A DNA stretch of 35,087 bases from UHGV virus genome UHGV-0145327, one strand, 5' to 3'. Origin of the DNA: a virus. A model generated the notes under the pieces. That model was given only the letters and a program-made list of their open reading frames with translations, did not search any database and was not told the DNA's origin. The first letter of the stretch is position 1. Each line of letters starts with the position of its first letter. Shown one piece after another: positions 2,636 through 29,693 of this stretch. The position numbers and the translations under genes were made by a program.

Positions 2636-4477
2636 TTACTGCTGTGTTGCCTCAGTAGCAAACAGCGGTCTGATGGCATTCGCAGCGTTATTTATCGCTC
2701 TTTCATAGGCTGGTGTTCCTGCTTTGGTGTTTGCCAAACGAAGAAGCATATTCCTTGCTGCTTTGGACTCATACAAGCGCATCATTGCACCAAAACCAGC
2801 CTCAAGCCCCATTGATACGCCAAGGGTCGCAGTTGCGCCAATCGTCCTTATCCTGTTGGCTTGCGATTGCCCCGTCTGAGTTACTACATTTGCGGTGTCT
2901 GACCTTGCTGTTTGCTGTAGAACTTCATGAAGAGCATCAAGCTCTTTCATGTGCTTTCCAGAAAAAATAGTGTTGTAAATTTCACCGCCTGACTGAGATT
3001 TCAGCTTATTAACTTCAGTGATGAACTTGGCTGGAGAGTCACCGGCCTTTTCCGCTATTTTGCTGACATAAGCTGCACGCATAGCATCTTTCCCTTTATT
3101 ATCCAATGCGCTCCAGATTCGTTTTACGTCAGATGGTTTTCTGCTTAATACAACGGTATTTATAAGTTCAGGACTGGCTTCACTGCTTGCCTTGTTGAGC
3201 TTGTTGGCAATGTTTTTATTAAGCACCTTATTATAAACGTTTGCATAATCGGAATTTGCTTTAAGGTATTTTGCTGCGTCTGATGCACCGAGGTTTTTAG
3301 CAACTGCGTTACGAAGGTCTTTTGACATTGCATTCTCTACCATATTGGTAGCTGCTTTTGCCTGGTTGGGGAAGACCATAGCATCTCCCTGAACATTAGA
3401 TCTAAATGCTGTTCTGTGCTGACGCAAGAGATCAAACGTAACATCCAAATCAGTTGCAGGGTTTGCTAATTCTTCACGTAGGTTACGCAAGGATGTAAGC
3501 AGGCTTTGATTGGCAGACGTCCCAAGCCGTTCCTGTCTTGCGATCGCTGTATTCAGAGCATTCATGGTATTTGTGGTATCAACTGCGGCATTACCCATTT
3601 TATTGGTGACGTCATTGATAACAGCGCCAGCGGCATCCTTCCGCCCCCTTAACGTGGTGGTAAGAGATTTCACCACATCATCAGGGTTGTACTCACCAAA
3701 CCGGTCAAAATAATTACTTACCAGCTTACTACGCGTTGCATATTGCTCCGCTCGCTTTGAGCCTGTCCCGAGCAAAGCCCCCTCGGCATCCTGAGTTAGG
3801 CCGCGAGTGAAAGCATTTTTCGGCGGGATAACATCAGATGTCATTGGTGTCACACCCATCGATTCTGATGTGGCAATTTTCTTCGCCACTTCTGGCGCAA
3901 TATCACCTTTTATAGCCGTTATTCCACGCCCTATTCCCTTTGCTGCTGCGGAAAGAACACCCTGAGCGGCAAGGTTAACTCCGGCATTTTTAGCTGCATT
4001 TTGTGCGAAATCGCCTTTCTGATTTGCGGCCTCTGCCAGTGATCCAATAGCCATGCTTCCTGCCGTTCCAACTCCTGGAACTAAATACCCACCAATTGTT
4101 TCACCGGCTTGCGCGTAGGGGTCTGTCGGTCTGTCTACTGGACGATAAACATCATCCAAAACCTTGGGTCCACCAAGCCCCTGACTGATTGCATTAATCA
4201 GACTTGCGCCGCCCTGCAATACGTCAAATGGTATGTTTACCAGACCACGACCAGCCTGTTCTGCAATTTGCCCTGCACTTTGACCACCAGTGAGCCAATC
4301 GCCAGCTTGTTGCATCAATGATGGTTCTTCACGTGCTGGTTCATTGCTATCCTGGCTGACAGTTTGTTGCTGAACAGACTGTCCAGCAAAATACTCATCA
4401 ATGGCAGATCCAATATCTTCCGTGCTCGTACCATCAGGGAAGGTAAATGTCTTACCGTTTGCAGTTACTTTCATCAT
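2636..4477 (-). CDS. Internal virion ejection protein, P22 gp16-like (613 aa)
   Basis: Size and position (last gene of the late operon, after the gp20-like gene) match the P22 order 7-20-16; Gly/Ala-rich sequence typical of ejection proteins. Confidence 0.8.
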
Positions 4478-23423: not shown

Positions 23424-24800
23424 TCATACGTCAGCCCCTTGTGCATATCGTCTGCCACGTGCAGCGGGTGCATTTGATGCTGTGCAAATCTGTCTGGCTT
23501 CATCCTGGTCACATGCAACAAAGTGTCCGTTACAGAACCGCTGGTAAACCGTACCAAGCGAGCCAAAACGGTTTTTCGTCACGATGATTTCAGCAAATGG
23601 CGCGGCGCTACTGTTCTCGTCATATACCGCTTCCCGATAGAGCATGATGATTGAGTCTGCGTCCTGCTCAATGCTTCCTGAATCACGCAAATCTGCGTTT
23701 GTCGGGCGTTTGTTTGGTCGCTTCTCAACATCGCGCGAAAGCTGACTTAGGGAGATCACAGGCGTTTTCAGGTCTTTCGCCATCGCCTTAAGGCTTCCGG
23801 AGATGTGAGCAATTGCGAGGTCGTTGCGATCTGCTTTCGGCTTCTCAATCAGGCCAAGATAATCCGCCATGATGAGTGACAGGTTTGGATTTTCCTGTTT
23901 GTGCCGTTCTGCGATTGAGCGTATTTCTTCGACCGATAACCGCGAGGCATCGACTACCCATACATCCAAATCTGCAAGCTGACTCATGCCGTTAGCAACA
24001 CGCGCCCAGCCCTCGTCATCCATCGATGCAGGATTTCGCAGTACGCTAACCGACATCCTCCCGGCGTTGGCAATGCTTCGCTCTGCAATCTGCAATGCGC
24101 TCATTTCCATTGAGAAAATCAATACTCCGCGCCGGACGTCAGAACCAGGAATAACACGACTTGCAACGCCTTCGGCAATCTTCAGCGCCAGCTCTGTTTT
24201 CCCCATACCAGGACGAGCAGCGATTATCACCAGGTCTTCTGCGTTCATCCCTCCGGTGATGGCGTCAAGTTCTTCGATTCCGGTCTTCAGGGTATCTGAC
24301 TCTTCTCCGTTCCTCAGACGCCTGTCAAGCGTGTCAGTGTAGTCAGTGATGATTTCCCCTAACCGTACCGGTTTAACCTCGTCACGGGGCTTTCTGATGG
24401 CTGAGAGACGCTTTACAAGTTCATCCATCGCCTGACTCGATGCGTCGATGGTTCCGCTCTGAATTGGTTCACGCATTTCATCCATGATTTCCAGCACCAG
24501 ACGGCGGTGATAGTTATCCGCGACCATTCCGGCATATCCCTTCAGGTTTGCGGCACTCGGGCAGTTTTTGCTGGTCATCAGGATTGACGTGAAATGCTCC
24601 TCTCCGCACGCCTCGGCAACCATCAGCGCATCGATTAGGTTTCTGTTTCTCGCCTGCTTGCGAATAACCTCGAAGGCTTTCCGGTAGAGCGGAATTGAAA
24701 ACGCTTCCGGCTCCAGCGTTGCCAGAACGTCACTGGCGGTTGGAGTTAATCCACCAATCAGCAGGCCACCGATAACGCTCGCTTCGATATCTTGTCTCAT
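23424..24800 (-). CDS. Replicative DNA helicase, DnaB family (458 aa; P22 gene 12-like)
   Basis: Walker [19 protein letters not shown] and DnaB C-terminal domain motifs; same length as P22 gp12. Confidence 0.9.
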
Positions 24801-25744
24801 GCAATCCCCCTGTCTGCAAACTTCCCTTCCCGAACTCCCGTTAACGAGTCTTCTCTCAGCAGGTAATCAAAATCAGCCGTCCAGCCCGTGTCGTTGTCTC
24901 CGAAGTAAAACGGCTTGGCCTGATGCACAAACGCCCTGACATACGCTCTGAAACCGTCCACGTTTGGCGTTTTCAGTTGCGGGATGATTTTCTTCAGGCG
25001 ACGTTTGCGTTTCTCGTTGACCGCAACAGCGTGTGGCAGTCTGTCACCGACTTCGGTGTTGTAGGCGTTCAGGAAGGATTCGTAGTCGATTCGTTCTGCC
25101 TTGCGACGTTCAGGTTTAACCTGCCCATCGCCTCCCCCATTGGGGGGTAGGGGGGTATTATTTATATTCTTGTTAATACCTTCTTGTTCATGATGTGCGG
25201 TTGTTTGTGCGGCTTCATGTGCGCTTTCATGTGCGGCATGTGCGCTGAAAGCCGCGCCATTACTGGCTTCGTCATGTGCGGCATCATGTGCGGTTGTTTG
25301 TGCGGCTTCATGTGCGGGTAAATTGTCCATTTTTTGAGCATATTCATGGTAATTTGTGATGGTTATCACACGACCTTTTTGCTTCTCTCCATCAATGGAG
25401 ATCATCCCCTCTTTCACAAAAACCTGAAGCATCCGCTCAACCTGATCACGGCTTGCTGGCTTGCCATGCCTGTCGCATAACTGAAGACCTAAATCAGCTG
25501 CTGTCACAACCAGTTGACCGGGTTGCAGATGCCATTCATGACCTTTGAAATTCGCTTTGTATGGCTTTCTGGCGGCATTCAGGAGAAGGTTTTCCCACAG
25601 GGTGCGAAGATAAACATCTTTCGCCCATGACTGTTTCAGAATGCTCCGGTACAACGGAATGTAACCAGTTTTCTGGTTCTCCATCCTGTTGCTCCTGCGC
25701 TCGTGTGCGGCGCTGAAATCGTAGATTTTTGCTGTATTGCTCAT
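24797..25744 (-). CDS. Replication initiation protein (lambda O-like in role, 315 aa) with an internal His/Ala-rich repeat region
   Basis: Immediately upstream of and overlapping the helicase gene; central repeats [14 protein letters not shown]...[14 protein letters not shown] are encoded by DNA direct repeats; C-terminal ...[19 protein letters not shown]... resembles a conserved phage replication-protein C-terminal domain. Confidence 0.75.
25130..25320. repeat. Candidate replication origin inside the initiator gene: about 35-bp direct repeats with several CATGTGCG(G) units, next to an AT-rich stretch and a C5/G6 inverted repeat
   Basis: catgatgtgcggttgtttgtgcggcttcatgtgcg at 25189-25223 recurs as catcatgtgcggttgtttgtgcggcttcatgtgcg at 25283-25317; further CATGTGCG units at about 25229, 25238 and 25273; AT-rich tattatttatattcttgttaatacc at 25156-25180; CCCCCATTGGGGGG at 25133-25146. 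Confidence 0.5.
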
Positions 25745-26041: not shown

Positions 26042-26335
26042 TTAAAATTCCATTTGTATTTGATCAGAACGCTCGGTTGCCGCCGGGCGTTTTTTATTGG
26101 TGAGAATCGAAGCAACTTGTCGTGCCAATCGAGCCATATCGTCGTCAACGACGCCCCATTCAAGAACAGCAAGCAGCATTGAGAACTTTGGAATCCAATC
26201 CCTCTTCCACCTGCTGATCTGCGACTTATCAACTCCCACAGCTTCCGCTGTCTTCTCAGTTCCAAGCATTGCGATTTTGTTAAGCAACGCACTCTCGATT
26301 CGTAGAGCCTCGTTGCGTTTGTTTGCACGAACCAT
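26042..26335 (-). CDS. cII: Transcriptional activator CII (97 aa)
   Basis: MVRANKRNEALRIESALLNKIAMLGTEKTAEAVGVDKSQISRWKRDWIPKFSMLLAVLEWGVVDDDMARLARQVASILTNKKRPAATERSDQIQMEF matches lambda CII as recalled; the leader AGGAAATACTTACAT-ATG is also lambda-like. Confidence 0.95.
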   Translation of the reverse strand: MVRANKRNEALRIESALLNKIAMLGTEKTAEAVGVDKSQISRWKRDWIPKFSMLLAVLEWGVVDDDMARLARQVASILTNKKRPAATERSDQIQMEF

Positions 26336-26393
26336 ATGTAAGTATTTCCTTAACAAATAAGAAGTTATGCGCATCAACTTATGCGCGTTGTAT

Positions 26394-26436
26394 TCCCGCA
26401 TTTCGGCGGGAATGAGGACCATGACTGTTAAAGAGC
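26394..26436 (-). promoter_or_regulatory. nutR: boxA (CGCTCTTTAAC) and boxB hairpin (TCCCGC-cgaaat-GCGGGA) between cro and cII
   Basis: Read on the minus strand: accGCTCTTTAAcag ... tTCCCGCCGAAATGCGGGAat. boxA precedes boxB as in lambdoid nut sites. Confidence 0.6.
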
Positions 26437-26444
26437 GGTGTTAC

Positions 26445-26669
26445 TTATGCTGCCTGATTCGGTTTTGGAAACAGGTGTGGCAAATCGGGGCGAATTTCGT
26501 AAGCCTTGATCTGCCCTCCAGTGGCGTTAACGATGGCGGTAACTTTCTCTGGAGAGACCAACCCGCCTTTCAGCCATTTGTGTACTGCTGGCTGCGTTAC
26601 ACCACACTTGTCGGCAAGGCGCTTTTGGCTACCGACAATTTTCAAGGCTCGTTGAATTACTAAATTCAT
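26445..26669 (-). CDS. cro: Cro-like HTH repressor (74 aa from MNLVIQRALK)
   Basis: Small HTH protein (QKRLADKCGVTQPAVHKWLKG) transcribed divergently from cI; AAGAGG Shine-Dalgarno 7 nt before the MNLV ATG. Confidence 0.75.
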   Translation of the reverse strand: MNLVIQRALKIVGSQKRLADKCGVTQPAVHKWLKGGLVSPEKVTAIVNATGGQIKAYEIRPDLPHLFPKPNQAA

Positions 26670-26705
26670 GAGCATACCTCTTGTGGTCATTACTTATAAC
26701 CAAAG

Positions 26706-26768
26706 ATAACTCAAGTTATAAAAAATAGCAATAACCTTTGTTATTTTACTTTGGATAACCGTAGTTAT
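26706..26768. promoter_or_regulatory. OR operator cluster: three ATAAC-N4-GTTAT sites between cro and cI (PR/PRM region)
   Basis: ATAACtcaaGTTAT (26706-26719), ATAACctttGTTAT (26731-26744), ATAACcgtaGTTAT (26755-26768). Confidence 0.6.
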
Positions 26769-26780
26769 AGATTTGTGGGT

Positions 26781-27488
26781 ATGAAAACATTCGCAGAAAG
26801 ACTAAATGCAGCCATGAGCTCAGCAGGGGTATCACAATCACAGCTTGCTGACATGGTTGGAATATCTCAGCCAGCCATACAGAAGATGTCGTCCGGTAAA
26901 ACAAACGGATCTCGCAAGATGGTTGAATTAGCCAATGCTTTAAAAGTGCGCCCTGAATGGCTTAGTTCTGGTATTGGTGAAATGAGGGATGGTGCACATG
27001 AAGAACCATCCAATGTCCGTGAGTCATCTTTAAAAGCTGTGGTATGGGAAGACATTAAAAGAAACGATGACGAGTTTGTTGCGTTGCCTCTTCTTAACGT
27101 TTCGCTTTCAGCTGGAAGCGGTAGCTGCGAGCTAGAGGAATCATCGGAGTTCTCTTTGGTTTTCAGAAAGCACTATCTGAAAAAGATGGGAGTATCTGAA
27201 AGATCAGCCAAGCTAGTTAGGGTTGTAGGGCAAAGCATGGAACCAACGCTTCACGATGGCGATGTTGTTGGTGTTAACACGCAAGATACCACCATCAGAG
27301 ATGGTAAAACCTACGCTATTTGCCAGTCTGATTTGTTACGAGTAAAAACATTAATCGCCACCCCTACATCGGTGATAATCAGATCAATAAATCGCGAAGA
27401 GTACCCGGATGAAGTAATGGATAGAGATGAATTTCATGAAACCGTAAGGATTATTGGCAGAGTATTCTGGTCGTCTCATAGTTGGTAA
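26781..27488 (+). CDS. cI: CI-type prophage repressor with HTH and LexA-like S24 autocleavage domain (235 aa from MKTFAERL)
   Basis: HTH QSQLADMVGISQPAIQKM; C-terminal S24 motifs (VVGQSMEPTLHDGDVV Ser, downstream Lys). ATG 26751 is an alternative start but would overlap the third operator. Confidence 0.85.
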   Translation: MKTFAERLNAAMSSAGVSQSQLADMVGISQPAIQKMSSGKTNGSRKMVELANALKVRPEWLSSGIGEMRDGAHEEPSNVRESSLKAVVWEDIKRNDDEFVALPLLNVSLSAGSGSCELEESSEFSLVFRKHYLKKMGVSERSAKLVRVVGQSMEPTLHDGDVVGVNTQDTTIRDGKTYAICQSDLLRVKTLIATPTSVIIRSINREEYPDEVMDRDEFHETVRIIGRVFWSSHSW

Positions 27489-27528
27489 CCGATAATCAGA
27501 AGAAGACTTACGGAAGTGCGGAGGGATA

Positions 27529-27825
27529 ATGGAATTTCTGATAGTTTTTGTTGTTGTTTTGGTCATCATTCTTTTTGTTTTGCTAAGCATTAGTAAAAAG
27601 CTATCTCAAGTGATTGAACATAGCTCTAATCGCGCAAAAGAAGAAGAGCATCTAATTGATATAAAAGAGATTCTCTCTGATATAAAAATCACATTAGATG
27701 AAATAAAATACACAACAGATCTAATTGAACAGTATAAAATACCAACCCCAAACGAGAGAAAAGCAATAGATCAATATCGTATTGACTTAGAAATCGACGA
27801 AATGCTAAGCAAAAGAAAAGACTAA
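27529..27825 (+). CDS. Small membrane-anchored hypothetical protein (98 aa) in the rexAB position, very AT-rich
   Basis: Directly downstream of cI on the same strand; N-terminal hydrophobic segment MEFLIVFVVVLVIILFVLLSI followed by a charged, helix-prone region; followed by an intrinsic terminator. Confidence 0.6.
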   Translation: MEFLIVFVVVLVIILFVLLSISKKLSQVIEHSSNRAKEEEHLIDIKEILSDIKITLDEIKYTTDLIEQYKIPTPNERKAIDQYRIDLEIDEMLSKRKD

Positions 27826-27830
27826 AAACA

Positions 27831-27858
27831 CCCGGCCTCAGCGCCGGGTTTTCTTTTC
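27831..27858 (+). terminator. Intrinsic terminator ending the cI/rex-slot operon
   Basis: CCCGGC-ctcagc-GCCGGG followed by TTTTCTTTTCC, 5 bp after the stop codon. Confidence 0.65.
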
Positions 27859-27978
27859 CTGCCGTTCACCACCCAATCACCCATCATCATCATAGACAAG
27901 CATCAAGCCAAAGGTAACACCTTCACCCCGCACGCAAGCCCTCAAACACCAATCAATCAGCAACATTTACAAAAATAA

Positions 27979-28064
27979 AATACCTTTGTTATCCATCACT
28001 TATAACTTATTTACCACAAAATATAAATTAGGTTATTGACCACACCTATAACCTAAGTTATCTT
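27979..28064. promoter_or_regulatory. OL/PL region: operator-like sites of the same ATAAC-N4-GTTAT family and a candidate PL (-35 TTGACC at 28036-28041)
   Basis: ATAACctaaGTTAT at 28048-28061 is a full site; ATACCtttgTTAT near 27980-27992 is a degenerate copy; TTGACC with TATCTT 17 bp downstream, pointing toward N. Confidence 0.5.
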
Positions 28065-28110
28065 TAAGCCATCAGCAGGGCGCTGGTAGCCAAACGGAAC
28101 AGATTGGCAG

Positions 28111-28151
28111 GCTCTTTAACATTGATGGGATTGTCCCGCCGAAATGCGGGA
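28111..28151 (+). promoter_or_regulatory. nutL: boxA (GCTCTTTAA) and boxB hairpin (TCCCGC-cgaaat-GCGGGA) upstream of N
   Basis: boxA at 28111-28119; boxB at 28134-28151 has the identical sequence to the boxB found in nutR. Confidence 0.6.
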
Positions 28152-28258: not shown

Positions 28259-28531
28259 ATGACAGTAGTCATTACATATCTGGCTGACGATAACGCCAGA
28301 AATCGCCGCAGAGCACGCAGACAGGCTCAACGTGAACAGGCAATGCAAGAGCAGCGACTGGCGCGAAAAATTGCGCTAAAGCTCTCTGGTTGCGTCAGAG
28401 CAGATAAAGCAGCATCACTCGGAAGCCTTCGCTGCAAGAAGGCAGATGAATGCAGTGGAAGTATTTGCCTGCCAAACGTAGCCATTTACGCGGCAGGCTA
28501 CCGGAAATCAAAACAACTGACGGCGAGATGA
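28259..28531 (+). CDS. N: N-type transcription antiterminator (90 aa; P22 gp24-like)
   Basis: Arginine-rich motif DNARNRRRARRQAQREQ near the N-terminus; C-terminal LPNVAIYAAGYRKSKQLTAR matches the P22 gp24 C-terminus (LPGVALYAAGHRKSKQITAR) as recalled. Confidence 0.85.
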   Translation: MTVVITYLADDNARNRRRARRQAQREQAMQEQRLARKIALKLSGCVRADKAASLGSLRCKKADECSGSICLPNVAIYAAGYRKSKQLTAR

Positions 28532-28547
28532 TAAATTAATTTGCTAA

Positions 28548-29129
28548 TTACTTGTTTTTGCCATGCTTATACTGAGCGATAAGTTCATCCATAAGACTGT
28601 CTTTCTTCCCAGCAAACCTAATGTAGCACTCATTTCTATAGCGTTCCGGGATAACAAAACGGTCGATTTCAGGATATCCAGTAGCAGAAGGTACCCGAAT
28701 AAGAAGCCCTTTTTCGAGCAATGAGATTGCTTCAGGGCTTCCCTTTTCTGTCTTTAGCTGGTTATTAGCGGCTACAGCGAATGCCAAATACGCTCTTTCT
28801 CCAAGAGTTAACGAATCAAACAAATCTTGCACGTATTTCTCTTCTTTAGATTTGCGCTTCTGAGCAGCGAATATCTCAATTCTTTCAGTCACAGCGTGAT
28901 AAGCGGAATTAACAACGCCGTTAAGCACATAGCTAACGCAAAACAACAGGATGTAATACATCCAGTAATGAGGAAGGATTTCTGGATTATGCAGGTTTAT
29001 CCATTCTTTTACGCTTACAGGCATAACAATAATCAATATGATTAGGATGATTAGCATATGAATCAACTGTTTAAGTGTCATTCCTTGCAGGAAAAAATGC
29101 ATTAGTTCCTGCCACCATGAGTTGTTCAT
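28548..29129 (-). CDS. sieB: Superinfection exclusion protein SieB-like membrane protein (193 aa)
   Basis: Lies next to N on the opposite strand as sieB does in lambda; similar size (about 192 aa); N-terminal transmembrane segments (LIHMLIILIILIIVMPV, YWMYYILLFCVSYVL). Confidence 0.75.
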   Translation of the reverse strand: MNNSWWQELMHFFLQGMTLKQLIHMLIILIILIIVMPVSVKEWINLHNPEILPHYWMYYILLFCVSYVLNGVVNSAYHAVTERIEIFAAQKRKSKEEKYVQDLFDSLTLGERAYLAFAVAANNQLKTEKGSPEAISLLEKGLLIRVPSATGYPEIDRFVIPERYRNECYIRFAGKKDSLMDELIAQYKHGKNK

Positions 29130-29381: not shown

Positions 29382-29693
29382 ATGAAATTACGTGTCTGGC
29401 ATATCCCGCAAGTACCTATGAAGCCGTTCATTGTAGAAGTGGCAAGTGTTGAAGAGGGTGTTCGCCTGATGGATGCACTGGCTGATTATGATGCCTTTCA
29501 GTATGACAACAATATCAAGCCTGACTACTGCAATGCTAACGGCCTTGAGATGTGGGATGAGAGCCTTATCGATGAAGATTTATCAGATATGGGGCTTACT
29601 GATCGCTGGGTGGATTGGTACAGCGAATGCCAATGTTACGACGACCCACGTAAATATCTCGAAAGCCTGAAAGAAGAAACATCAGCCGCCTAA
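29382..29693 (+). CDS. Hypothetical acidic protein (103 aa), first gene after sieB in the PL operon
   Basis: GGAGAAAAT-ATG start; Cys-containing acidic protein. Position corresponds to P22 gene 17 / lambda ral region, but I cannot confirm the family from sequence. Confidence 0.55.
   Translation: MKLRVWHIPQVPMKPFIVEVASVEEGVRLMDALADYDAFQYDNNIKPDYCNANGLEMWDESLIDEDLSDMGLTDRWVDWYSECQCYDDPRKYLESLKEETSAA

Follow-up and report, generated by a model that had tools for sequence, protein, structure and literature searches.

A gene for a 98-residue predicted membrane protein, best filed as a new occupant of the cI-N hotspot of lambdoid prophages

The open reading frame (ORF) at positions 27529..27825 (+ strand) of UHGV virus genome UHGV-0145327 is best regarded as a new and so far unstudied gene of an established hotspot between the repressor gene cI and the antiterminator gene N, and as a cargo gene of the repressor operon that is probably expressed in lysogens. 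We refer to the whole stretch of DNA that was analysed, 35,087 nucleotides, as the window. The cI-N interval is the classic site of lysogen-expressed genes in temperate phages, and studies have dealt with only a few of the genes found there (rexAB, bstA). The logic of the slot is itself textbook; the new part is the protein, which has neither an annotation nor a homologue of known function and which, at 98 residues, is among the simplest occupants possible. The family to which it belongs keeps to the repressor operon with unusual fidelity and consists of proteins of minimal size; it is common in the prophages of STEC, and characterised phages almost lack it.

Organisation of the immunity region

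The ORF is surrounded by an immunity region of lambdoid type, and the phage genome is P22-like. The repressor gene cI (26781..27488, + strand) encodes a 235-residue protein that matches Peptidase_S24 (1.4e-17) and HTH_3 (7.8e-7) in Pfam, and PHROG 4, transcriptional repressor (4.5e-53). Divergent from it is cro (26445-26690, - strand), with cII at 26042-26422 (- strand). The OR operators, three perfect ATAAC-N4-GTTAT sites with a spacing of 24-25 bp, are located between cro and cI (26706-26768). Two more such sites, at 28023-28036 and 28048-28061, represent OL, which together with a PL-like promoter occupies 28023..28064 (+ strand); the promoter, TTGACC-17-TATCTT, is at 28036-28064, and one OL site overlaps its -10. 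In total the window has six of these sites compared with 0.65 expected. OL/PL bounds the immunity region on the right, and is followed by nutL boxA/boxB (about 28111-28150), by the gene for an N-type antiterminator (28259-28531; PF25694, 1.1e-15) and by sieB (28548-29129, - strand; PF14163, 1.1e-25; PHROG 1301), which is convergent with N. This order, cro, cI-ORF-terminator, OL/PL-nutL, N, sieB, mirrors that of cro, cI-rexA-rexB, OL, nutL, N, sieB in annotated lambda, and bears out the first-pass annotation, which had assigned the gene to the rexA/rexB position downstream of cI.

Two further genes of the window deserve mention. Just beyond sieB, a P22 gp17-type "superinfection exclusion" protein is encoded at 29382-29693 (+ strand; PF17420, 4.3e-55); with this protein and a SieB homologue near its immunity region, the phage already has at least one recognised exclusion function. 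A 315-residue protein of the replication region (24797-25744, - strand) has a low-complexity stretch rich in His and Ala, in which the motif HEAAQTTAH is repeated.

Expression signals and base composition

The ORF extends from an ATG at 27529 to a TAA at 27823-27825, and begins 40 nt past the cI stop codon (27486-88). The 40-nt spacer between the two genes (27489..27528, + strand) carries a Shine-Dalgarno (SD) sequence, GGAGG, at 27520-27524, 4 nt before the ATG. An intrinsic terminator (27830..27856, + strand) begins 4 nt past the ORF stop codon; it consists of a 7-bp GC-rich stem, ACCCGGC/GCCGGGT, with a 6-nt loop (27830-27849), and a T-run, TTTTCTTTT. With a folding energy of -13.7 kcal/mol (z = -2.4 compared with shuffles), it matches its earlier description as clean, and it is presumed to end the cI-ORF transcript. 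A weaker reverse-strand form of the terminator is due to an A-run upstream. The only promoter-like match near the ORF is inside cI (27454-27482), agrees with the consensus at 9 of 12 positions and has a chance-level frequency, and the ORF appears to depend on the cI promoter.

The GC content of the ORF is 30.3% (GC3 26%), compared with 43.6% for cI, 51.3% for N and 47.7% for the 35-kb window as a whole, so that the claim that the gene is far more AT-rich than cI and N holds when calculated. It is the lowest-GC 297-nt stretch in the 35 kb, with 0.03% of stretches of that length being as low. Both the deviant base composition and the gene's own terminator are traits of a moron in the sense of Juhala and Hendrix.

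Downstream of the terminator and before OL, a spacer of ~100 nt (27857-27960) is strongly C-rich and G-poor on the + strand, the GC skew being about -0.38 to -0.39 in segments spanning 27700-28099. The spacer has no ORF and no Rfam match, and could serve as a rut-like backup site for termination or have been left behind by an exchange of cassettes. The Rfam scan likewise gave no match over the whole 35-kb window.

Selection and integrity of the gene

A short, AT-rich ORF that is labelled only as a hypothetical protein, and is not annotated in the sole GenBank phage record that carries it, could be read as a chance ORF in an AT-rich spacer, or as a decaying and non-functional remnant. The pattern of conservation effectively refutes this reading, to which we attach a negligible probability. 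Between the window ORF and the Citrobacter genes dS is 0.8-1.0 and dN 0.13-0.24, giving dN/dS values of 0.15-0.24 with synonymous sites near saturation; for the most divergent pair with an estimable dS, the values are 1.9 for dS and 0.12 for dN/dS. All of the full-length E. coli copies that could be read are intact (34/34), and these comprise 15 nucleotide haplotypes and 11 protein variants. The conserved C-terminal motif is kept in proteins of as little as 35% identity, and both the SD sequence and the terminator are conserved. We conclude that the ORF is a real gene under purifying selection.

A single copy outside the 34 is split by an insertion sequence. In E. coli strain 3CM (locus L002, 2767-3995) an IS3-family element lies inside the ORF at codon ~36, equivalent to 27635-27639 of the window; these 5 bases align on both sides of the element, and are likely to be a 5-bp target duplication. 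This insertion is a natural knockout of the ORF; the prophage concerned retains cI and cro.

Linkage to the repressor operon

Contexts were examined for 12 relatives whose proteins are 35-77% identical to that of the window. These comprise the Citrobacter loci L004, L006 and L008, the metagenome or SRA loci L009, L012, L013, L014, L016, L049, L051 and L057, and L050, in which the protein is identical to one from Yersinia frederiksenii. In every case, down to 35% identity, the gene is immediately downstream of an S24 repressor gene and on the same strand; cro and cII are divergent on the other side of the repressor, and N follows wherever the contig is long enough. Between the stop codon of the repressor gene and the ATG there are 0-54 nt (0 in L057 and 1 in L051). 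An SD-like purine run precedes the ORF at each homologous locus, and a hairpin and T-run come directly past the stop codon in eight of the nine loci checked. Given the short gaps and the lack of a credible promoter, we infer that the ORF is co-transcribed with the repressor in most loci; the gaps of 0-1 nt suggest translational coupling at some loci, in which the ORF is probably translated together with the repressor. The base composition is also a shared feature: in each of the nine loci measured, the GC content of the ORF (30-41%) is markedly below that of cI and of the locus on average (about 48%).

The neighbouring repressors differ widely. They are 20-41% identical in most pairs, and include lambda-type C-terminal domains on two different DNA-binding domains. 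Between the window and L004 the ORF products are 77% identical and the cI proteins 25%, so that the ORF is the better conserved of the two genes.

Every clear relative (E ≤ 6e-6) is carried by a phage and bound to the repressor operon. Three relatives that match more weakly (E ≥ 2.6e-5, 24-35% identity; L010 5001-5351, L011 1229-1570 and L056 4001-4342) are found outside lambdoid immunity regions, their contexts being a Pelagicoccus genome, a SHOCT-domain gene with an IS200 transposase, and a position near a tyrosine integrase. They share the motif Y-K-L-P...E-[RQ]...D...E. It is uncertain whether they belong to the family, and the C-terminal motif may predate the association with lambdoid phages.

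An exchangeable cassette

Closely related immunity modules define the limits of the cargo. Locus L054, which has a cI gene 99.2% identical to that of the window, aligns with it up to 27490 and again from 27830 on; in between it has 769 bp of unrelated DNA with ORFs of 120 and 42 residues (L054 3454-3959), the terminator being retained despite the change of cargo. Homology stops at 27490/27488 in L052 and L053, and resumes at 27961/27971. Behind cI, L052 has genes for a DUF3024 protein and a 177-residue protein (3246-4310), a cargo that is carried by strain 2014C-3061, and the slot of L053 has only an antisense ORF of 69 residues (3361-3570, - strand). An O157:H7 relative, with a cI 79% identical, has no same-strand cargo in the slot. 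Other slot genes are found in modules that have the same Cro protein and cI proteins 93-99% identical. From these homology breakpoints the exchangeable cassette, comprising the SD sequence and the ORF, is placed at 27491..27829 (+ strand). The complementary comparison is with the Citrobacter loci, where cI is unrelated and homology to the window starts at the SD sequence and stops just after the terminator. The mobile unit is the SD sequence and the ORF, with or without the terminator.

Cargo is thus swapped between near-identical immunity modules exactly from the cI stop codon to the terminator, and these swaps confirm the horizontal acquisition that had been proposed from base composition. 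In E. coli, cII-cro-cI-ORF-terminator-OL/PL-nutL forms one cluster, and this is joined to at least six replication modules and to at least 7-13 left-arm regions. The interval as such is presented as a hotspot of mosaic accessory genes in the passages of PMC8585504 and PMC7067206 that cite Degnan 2007, and genes 44/45 of epsilon34 are further occupants of it (PMC2629481).

The strict linkage to cI over at least 12 immunity types, including gaps of only 0-1 nt, might be explained if the protein modulates the lysis-lysogeny switch, tuning establishment or induction through FtsH/HflKC, RecA or Clp proteases. A domain at the membrane that faces the cytoplasm, as predicted below, would be where FtsH/HflKC act. 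Regulatory side-activities are also reported for lambda RexB and phage 434 Hex. However, the ORF does not co-vary with the type of cI, cro or N, as its conservation beside the dissimilar repressor of L004 illustrates. Moreover, the same cro and near-identical cI genes function with other cargo, with none, or with the IS-disrupted copy; since cI and cro occur in these combinations, the immunity switch works without the ORF, and the swaps disfavour a core regulatory role. We consider a modulator of the switch improbable.

Distribution and database searches

The protein belongs to PHROG 18389, the sole PHROG with a significant match, and aligns with it from end to end (residues 1-98 on profile positions 1-98, E = 1.8e-61); this family is annotated "unknown function", so that no function follows from membership. 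The family is very small. When 5.8 billion protein clusters were searched by a word index, only 11 matched, all from E. coli and Citrobacter and at 73-99% identity, and an exhaustive HMM search of 1.84 billion representatives at 50% identity found 14 clusters of 94-126 residues, with no host homologue among these representatives. A profile search of species-representative genomes gave 49 pattern matches, none of which was confirmed, and no extra loci.

The ORF segment is present in 99 of 5,426 complete E. coli genomes (~2%), always as a "hypothetical protein". Many of these strains are O26/O111-type STEC, and the gene is enriched in the prophages of STEC of this type and of ExPEC. The exact protein is recorded on about 600 contigs, and members of the family also occur in Citrobacter and Yersinia prophages. 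Among 50,697 GenBank phage records, searched by tblastn with three family members, only Stx1a_10051 gives a match, and the ORF is unannotated there. Assignment of the H19 copy to phage H-19B was rejected, as that copy is located in a P22-like prophage without stx.

No significant match to the ORF was found in Pfam, NCBIfam or PADLOC, the best in PADLOC-DB v2 being ZorB3 (E = 0.01, 13 bits), over the membrane helix only. The 19 aligned members of the family gave only sub-threshold matches in Pfam, to transmembrane or coiled-coil DUFs (DUF948, DUF4446, DUF5385), and Foldseek gave 0 matches in BFVD and the PDB. The homology and structure searches that the first-pass annotation had named as a check on an exclusion function have thus yielded a full-length match to one family, PHROG 18389, and neither a defence, Sie or Abi family nor a match to a known fold. 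No paper in the literature search mentions the RefSeq accessions or the PHROG identifier.

Predicted structure of the protein

The ORF product is predicted from its sequence to be a bitopic inner-membrane protein, with an anchor formed by residues 3-22 and a cytoplasmic helical domain formed by residues 23-98. The anchor (FLIVFVVVLVIILFVLLSIS) has a mean Kyte-Doolittle hydropathy of 3.5 and is followed by KK; it is uniformly hydrophobic, with no polar residue able to line a pore. A single small protein of 98 residues with one membrane helix, in the rexAB slot, is what had first been described, and the charged C-terminal region of that description is likewise found, the last 76 residues including 14 K+R and 18 D+E. 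The flank before the helix has no K or R in any of the 19 family members, and has an acidic residue wherever such a flank exists; the flank after the helix has K or R in all 19. From these charges the positive-inside rule predicts an N-out/C-in topology with the conserved domain in the cytoplasm, and the lack of a basic n-region disfavours a cleavable signal peptide.

In the family alignment the hydrophobic helix at the N terminus is followed by a linker that varies and then by a conserved C-terminal block, I-K-Y-T-T-D-x-I-E-x-Y-K-[LI]-P-x-x-x-E-R-x-x-[IL]-D-x-x-x-x-D-x-E-[IV]. Y69, P72, D81 and E88 are invariant in 19/19 sequences. AlphaFold2 gives all-helical models, with pLDDT values of 78-81 and a pTM that is low, 0.29-0.30, for the monomer. 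Helices comprise residues 2-38, 45-68 and 74-97 when 9 sequences are used, and residues 2-69 and 74-97 when 19 are used; the two models disagree on the helix break at residues 39-44, and in both the chain turns at Y69-K-I-P72. Over residues 42-68, the heptad a/d positions are 87.5% hydrophobic compared with 44% overall, and a PDB profile search with the family found designed coiled coils only, which together suggest oligomerisation. Residues R77, D81, R84 and E88 (i, i+4, i+7, i+11) are located on one face of the last helix.

Several known types of small phage protein were considered and rejected. An i-spanin or antiholin (Rz, T4 RI) would have the opposite topology as judged by charge, the lysis genes are elsewhere in the window, and there is no PHROG match to such proteins. 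A type I toxin is rejected by the size of the protein, by the conservation of its soluble domain and by the lack of any antisense feature, and a substitute for cIII is rejected because cIII genes co-occur with the ORF.

Comparison with known systems

Like rexAB of lambda, the ORF is located downstream of cI on the same strand, and before a terminator, OL/PL, N and sieB. Expression from the repressor promoter in lysogens, as for rexAB, is presumed for the ORF; in both cases a membrane protein is involved, and the genes are more AT-rich than their neighbours (rexA 40% and rexB 42.5% GC in lambda, compared with 45% for cI and 50% for N). RexAB excludes T4 rII and other phages by membrane depolarisation, and pairs a soluble sensor with the polytopic RexB, which has four membrane helices. 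The ORF, in contrast, encodes one single-pass protein of 98 residues. Its anchor has no polar residues, so that the protein is unlikely to be a pore itself and a RexB-like channel is unlikely. Alignment of the family profile with lambda RexB (hhalign) gives a probability of 1.2% over 15 membrane-helix columns, and no Rex model in PHROG or Pfam matches the ORF.

BstA, from the Salmonella prophage BTP1, is a much larger, soluble protein. As with the ORF, its gene forms a single-gene cargo downstream of cI and ends in a Rho-independent terminator of its own; the cI promoter drives its transcription, and the BstA family shows a striking association with the repressor locus (PMC8585504, PMC7067206). 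BstA works where phage DNA is being replicated, and not at the membrane (PMC8585504). The two are unrelated in sequence, the ORF sharing no Pfam, PHROG or PADLOC model with BstA.

HK97 gp15 (YebO), T4 Imm and Sp, P22 SieA and lactococcal Sie2009 resemble the ORF product, as predicted, in being small prophage-expressed inner-membrane proteins whose gene is in an AT-rich, horizontally moved cassette with a terminator; by this analogy the ORF is a candidate genome-entry blocker (PMC3594210, PMC10883804). Models for YebO, SieA, SieB, Imm and Sp do not match the ORF, with no YebO match in Pfam even at E ≤ 1; for SieB (PF14163), the homologue in the window is the separate gene at 28548-29129 (- strand). 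Whereas gp15 is encoded by a moron of the tail operon that bears a promoter, and has many homologues in hosts, the ORF family has no detectable promoter of its own, is found in the repressor operon only and has no host homologues. A further difference from the gp15-type proteins is that the conserved domain of the ORF product is predicted to be cytoplasmic.

Possible function in exclusion

The first-pass annotation had favoured a phage-exclusion function. That the ORF product excludes other phages is, in our estimate, a little short of an even chance. The support for this claim is the precedent set for the slot by rexAB, bstA and genes 44/45 of epsilon34. Of these, lambda rexAB and BTP1 bstA are both co-transcribed with cI and are both abortive-infection systems (PMC8585504, PMC7067206). 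Such an argument is biased, since studies have covered only those occupants of the slot that have a phage phenotype. Proteins that block injection usually work through parts located in the periplasm or within the membrane. The ORF product, in contrast, would expose almost nothing outside the cytoplasm, which counts against exclusion.

If exclusion is the function, the following mechanism can be proposed. The ORF would be an accessory lysogenic-conversion gene, read together with cI from the repressor transcript of PRM/PRE type, which would put its product in every lysogen and also supply it during establishment. Two residues would be in the periplasm, the featureless hydrophobic helix would serve only as an anchor, and ~76 residues would be in the cytoplasm. 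Residues 42-68 would form a heptad-patterned stalk, probably oligomerising, that folds back at Y69-K-[IL]-P72 on to the last helix with its R77/D81/R84/E88 charge ladder. The resulting membrane-tethered hairpin might then bind a partner at the cytoplasmic side of the inner membrane, either a host component that phages use for genome entry or a protein that the incoming phage delivers or makes early. Heteroimmune phages would thereby be halted during DNA entry or just after it, by superinfection exclusion or possibly by abortive infection.

A featureless anchor combined with a conserved cytoplasmic surface favours tethered binding of this kind over a RexB-like channel. Precedents exist for the separate elements: HK97 gp15 is a small prophage-encoded inner-membrane protein that blocks genome entry (PMC3594210), DicB interferes with entry from the cytoplasmic side (PMC6832061), and SNIPE is a membrane-bound cytoplasmic effector (PMC13190303). 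Capture at the cytoplasmic face would differ from the action of RexAB channels, of the periplasm-acting Sie proteins and of BstA. The full proposal, of a new, repressor-operon-specific, single-gene family of prophage defence proteins in enterobacterial lambdoid phages whose hairpin captures an entry-site or early phage component, is tentative and somewhat unlikely as a whole.

Lysogenic conversion could instead act on host physiology, the protein being a tethered coiled-coil adaptor that acts on envelope stress, transport or division and brings a gain in fitness unrelated to phages. The architecture is generic enough for this, with its weak, sub-threshold matches to DUF948, DUF4446 and DUF5385, and the possible distant relatives of 24-35% identity outside lambdoid immunity regions, as well as the enrichment of the gene in O26/O111-type STEC and ExPEC prophages, would fit. 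Against this, the clear relatives (E ≤ 6e-6) are without exception phage-borne and tied to the repressor operon, and the 1.84 billion representatives hold no host homologue, unlike the case of HK97 gp15/YebO-type morons. We judge an effect on host physiology unlikely, though less so than a modulator of the switch.

Should the ORF exclude phages, it would be a minimal and mechanistically new defence protein, and the phage susceptibility of STEC lineages, and with it the choices made in phage therapy, would be affected. The gene is small, has a conserved motif and lies in a cleanly bounded cassette, and so lends itself easily to experiment.

Other genes of the slot

The alternative cargo found in L052, L053 and L054 is likewise uncharacterised, and its genes are candidates for further functions expressed in lysogens. 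A small ORF of 68-74 residues is located, in Citrobacter and related loci, on the opposite strand between the ORF terminator and OL/N (- strand; L004 6324-6530, L006/L008 6324-6548 and L009 2402-2611), and its product in L009 is a DUF2767 protein (3.7e-33). Absent from the window, this ORF looks like a second small cargo gene of the same hotspot.
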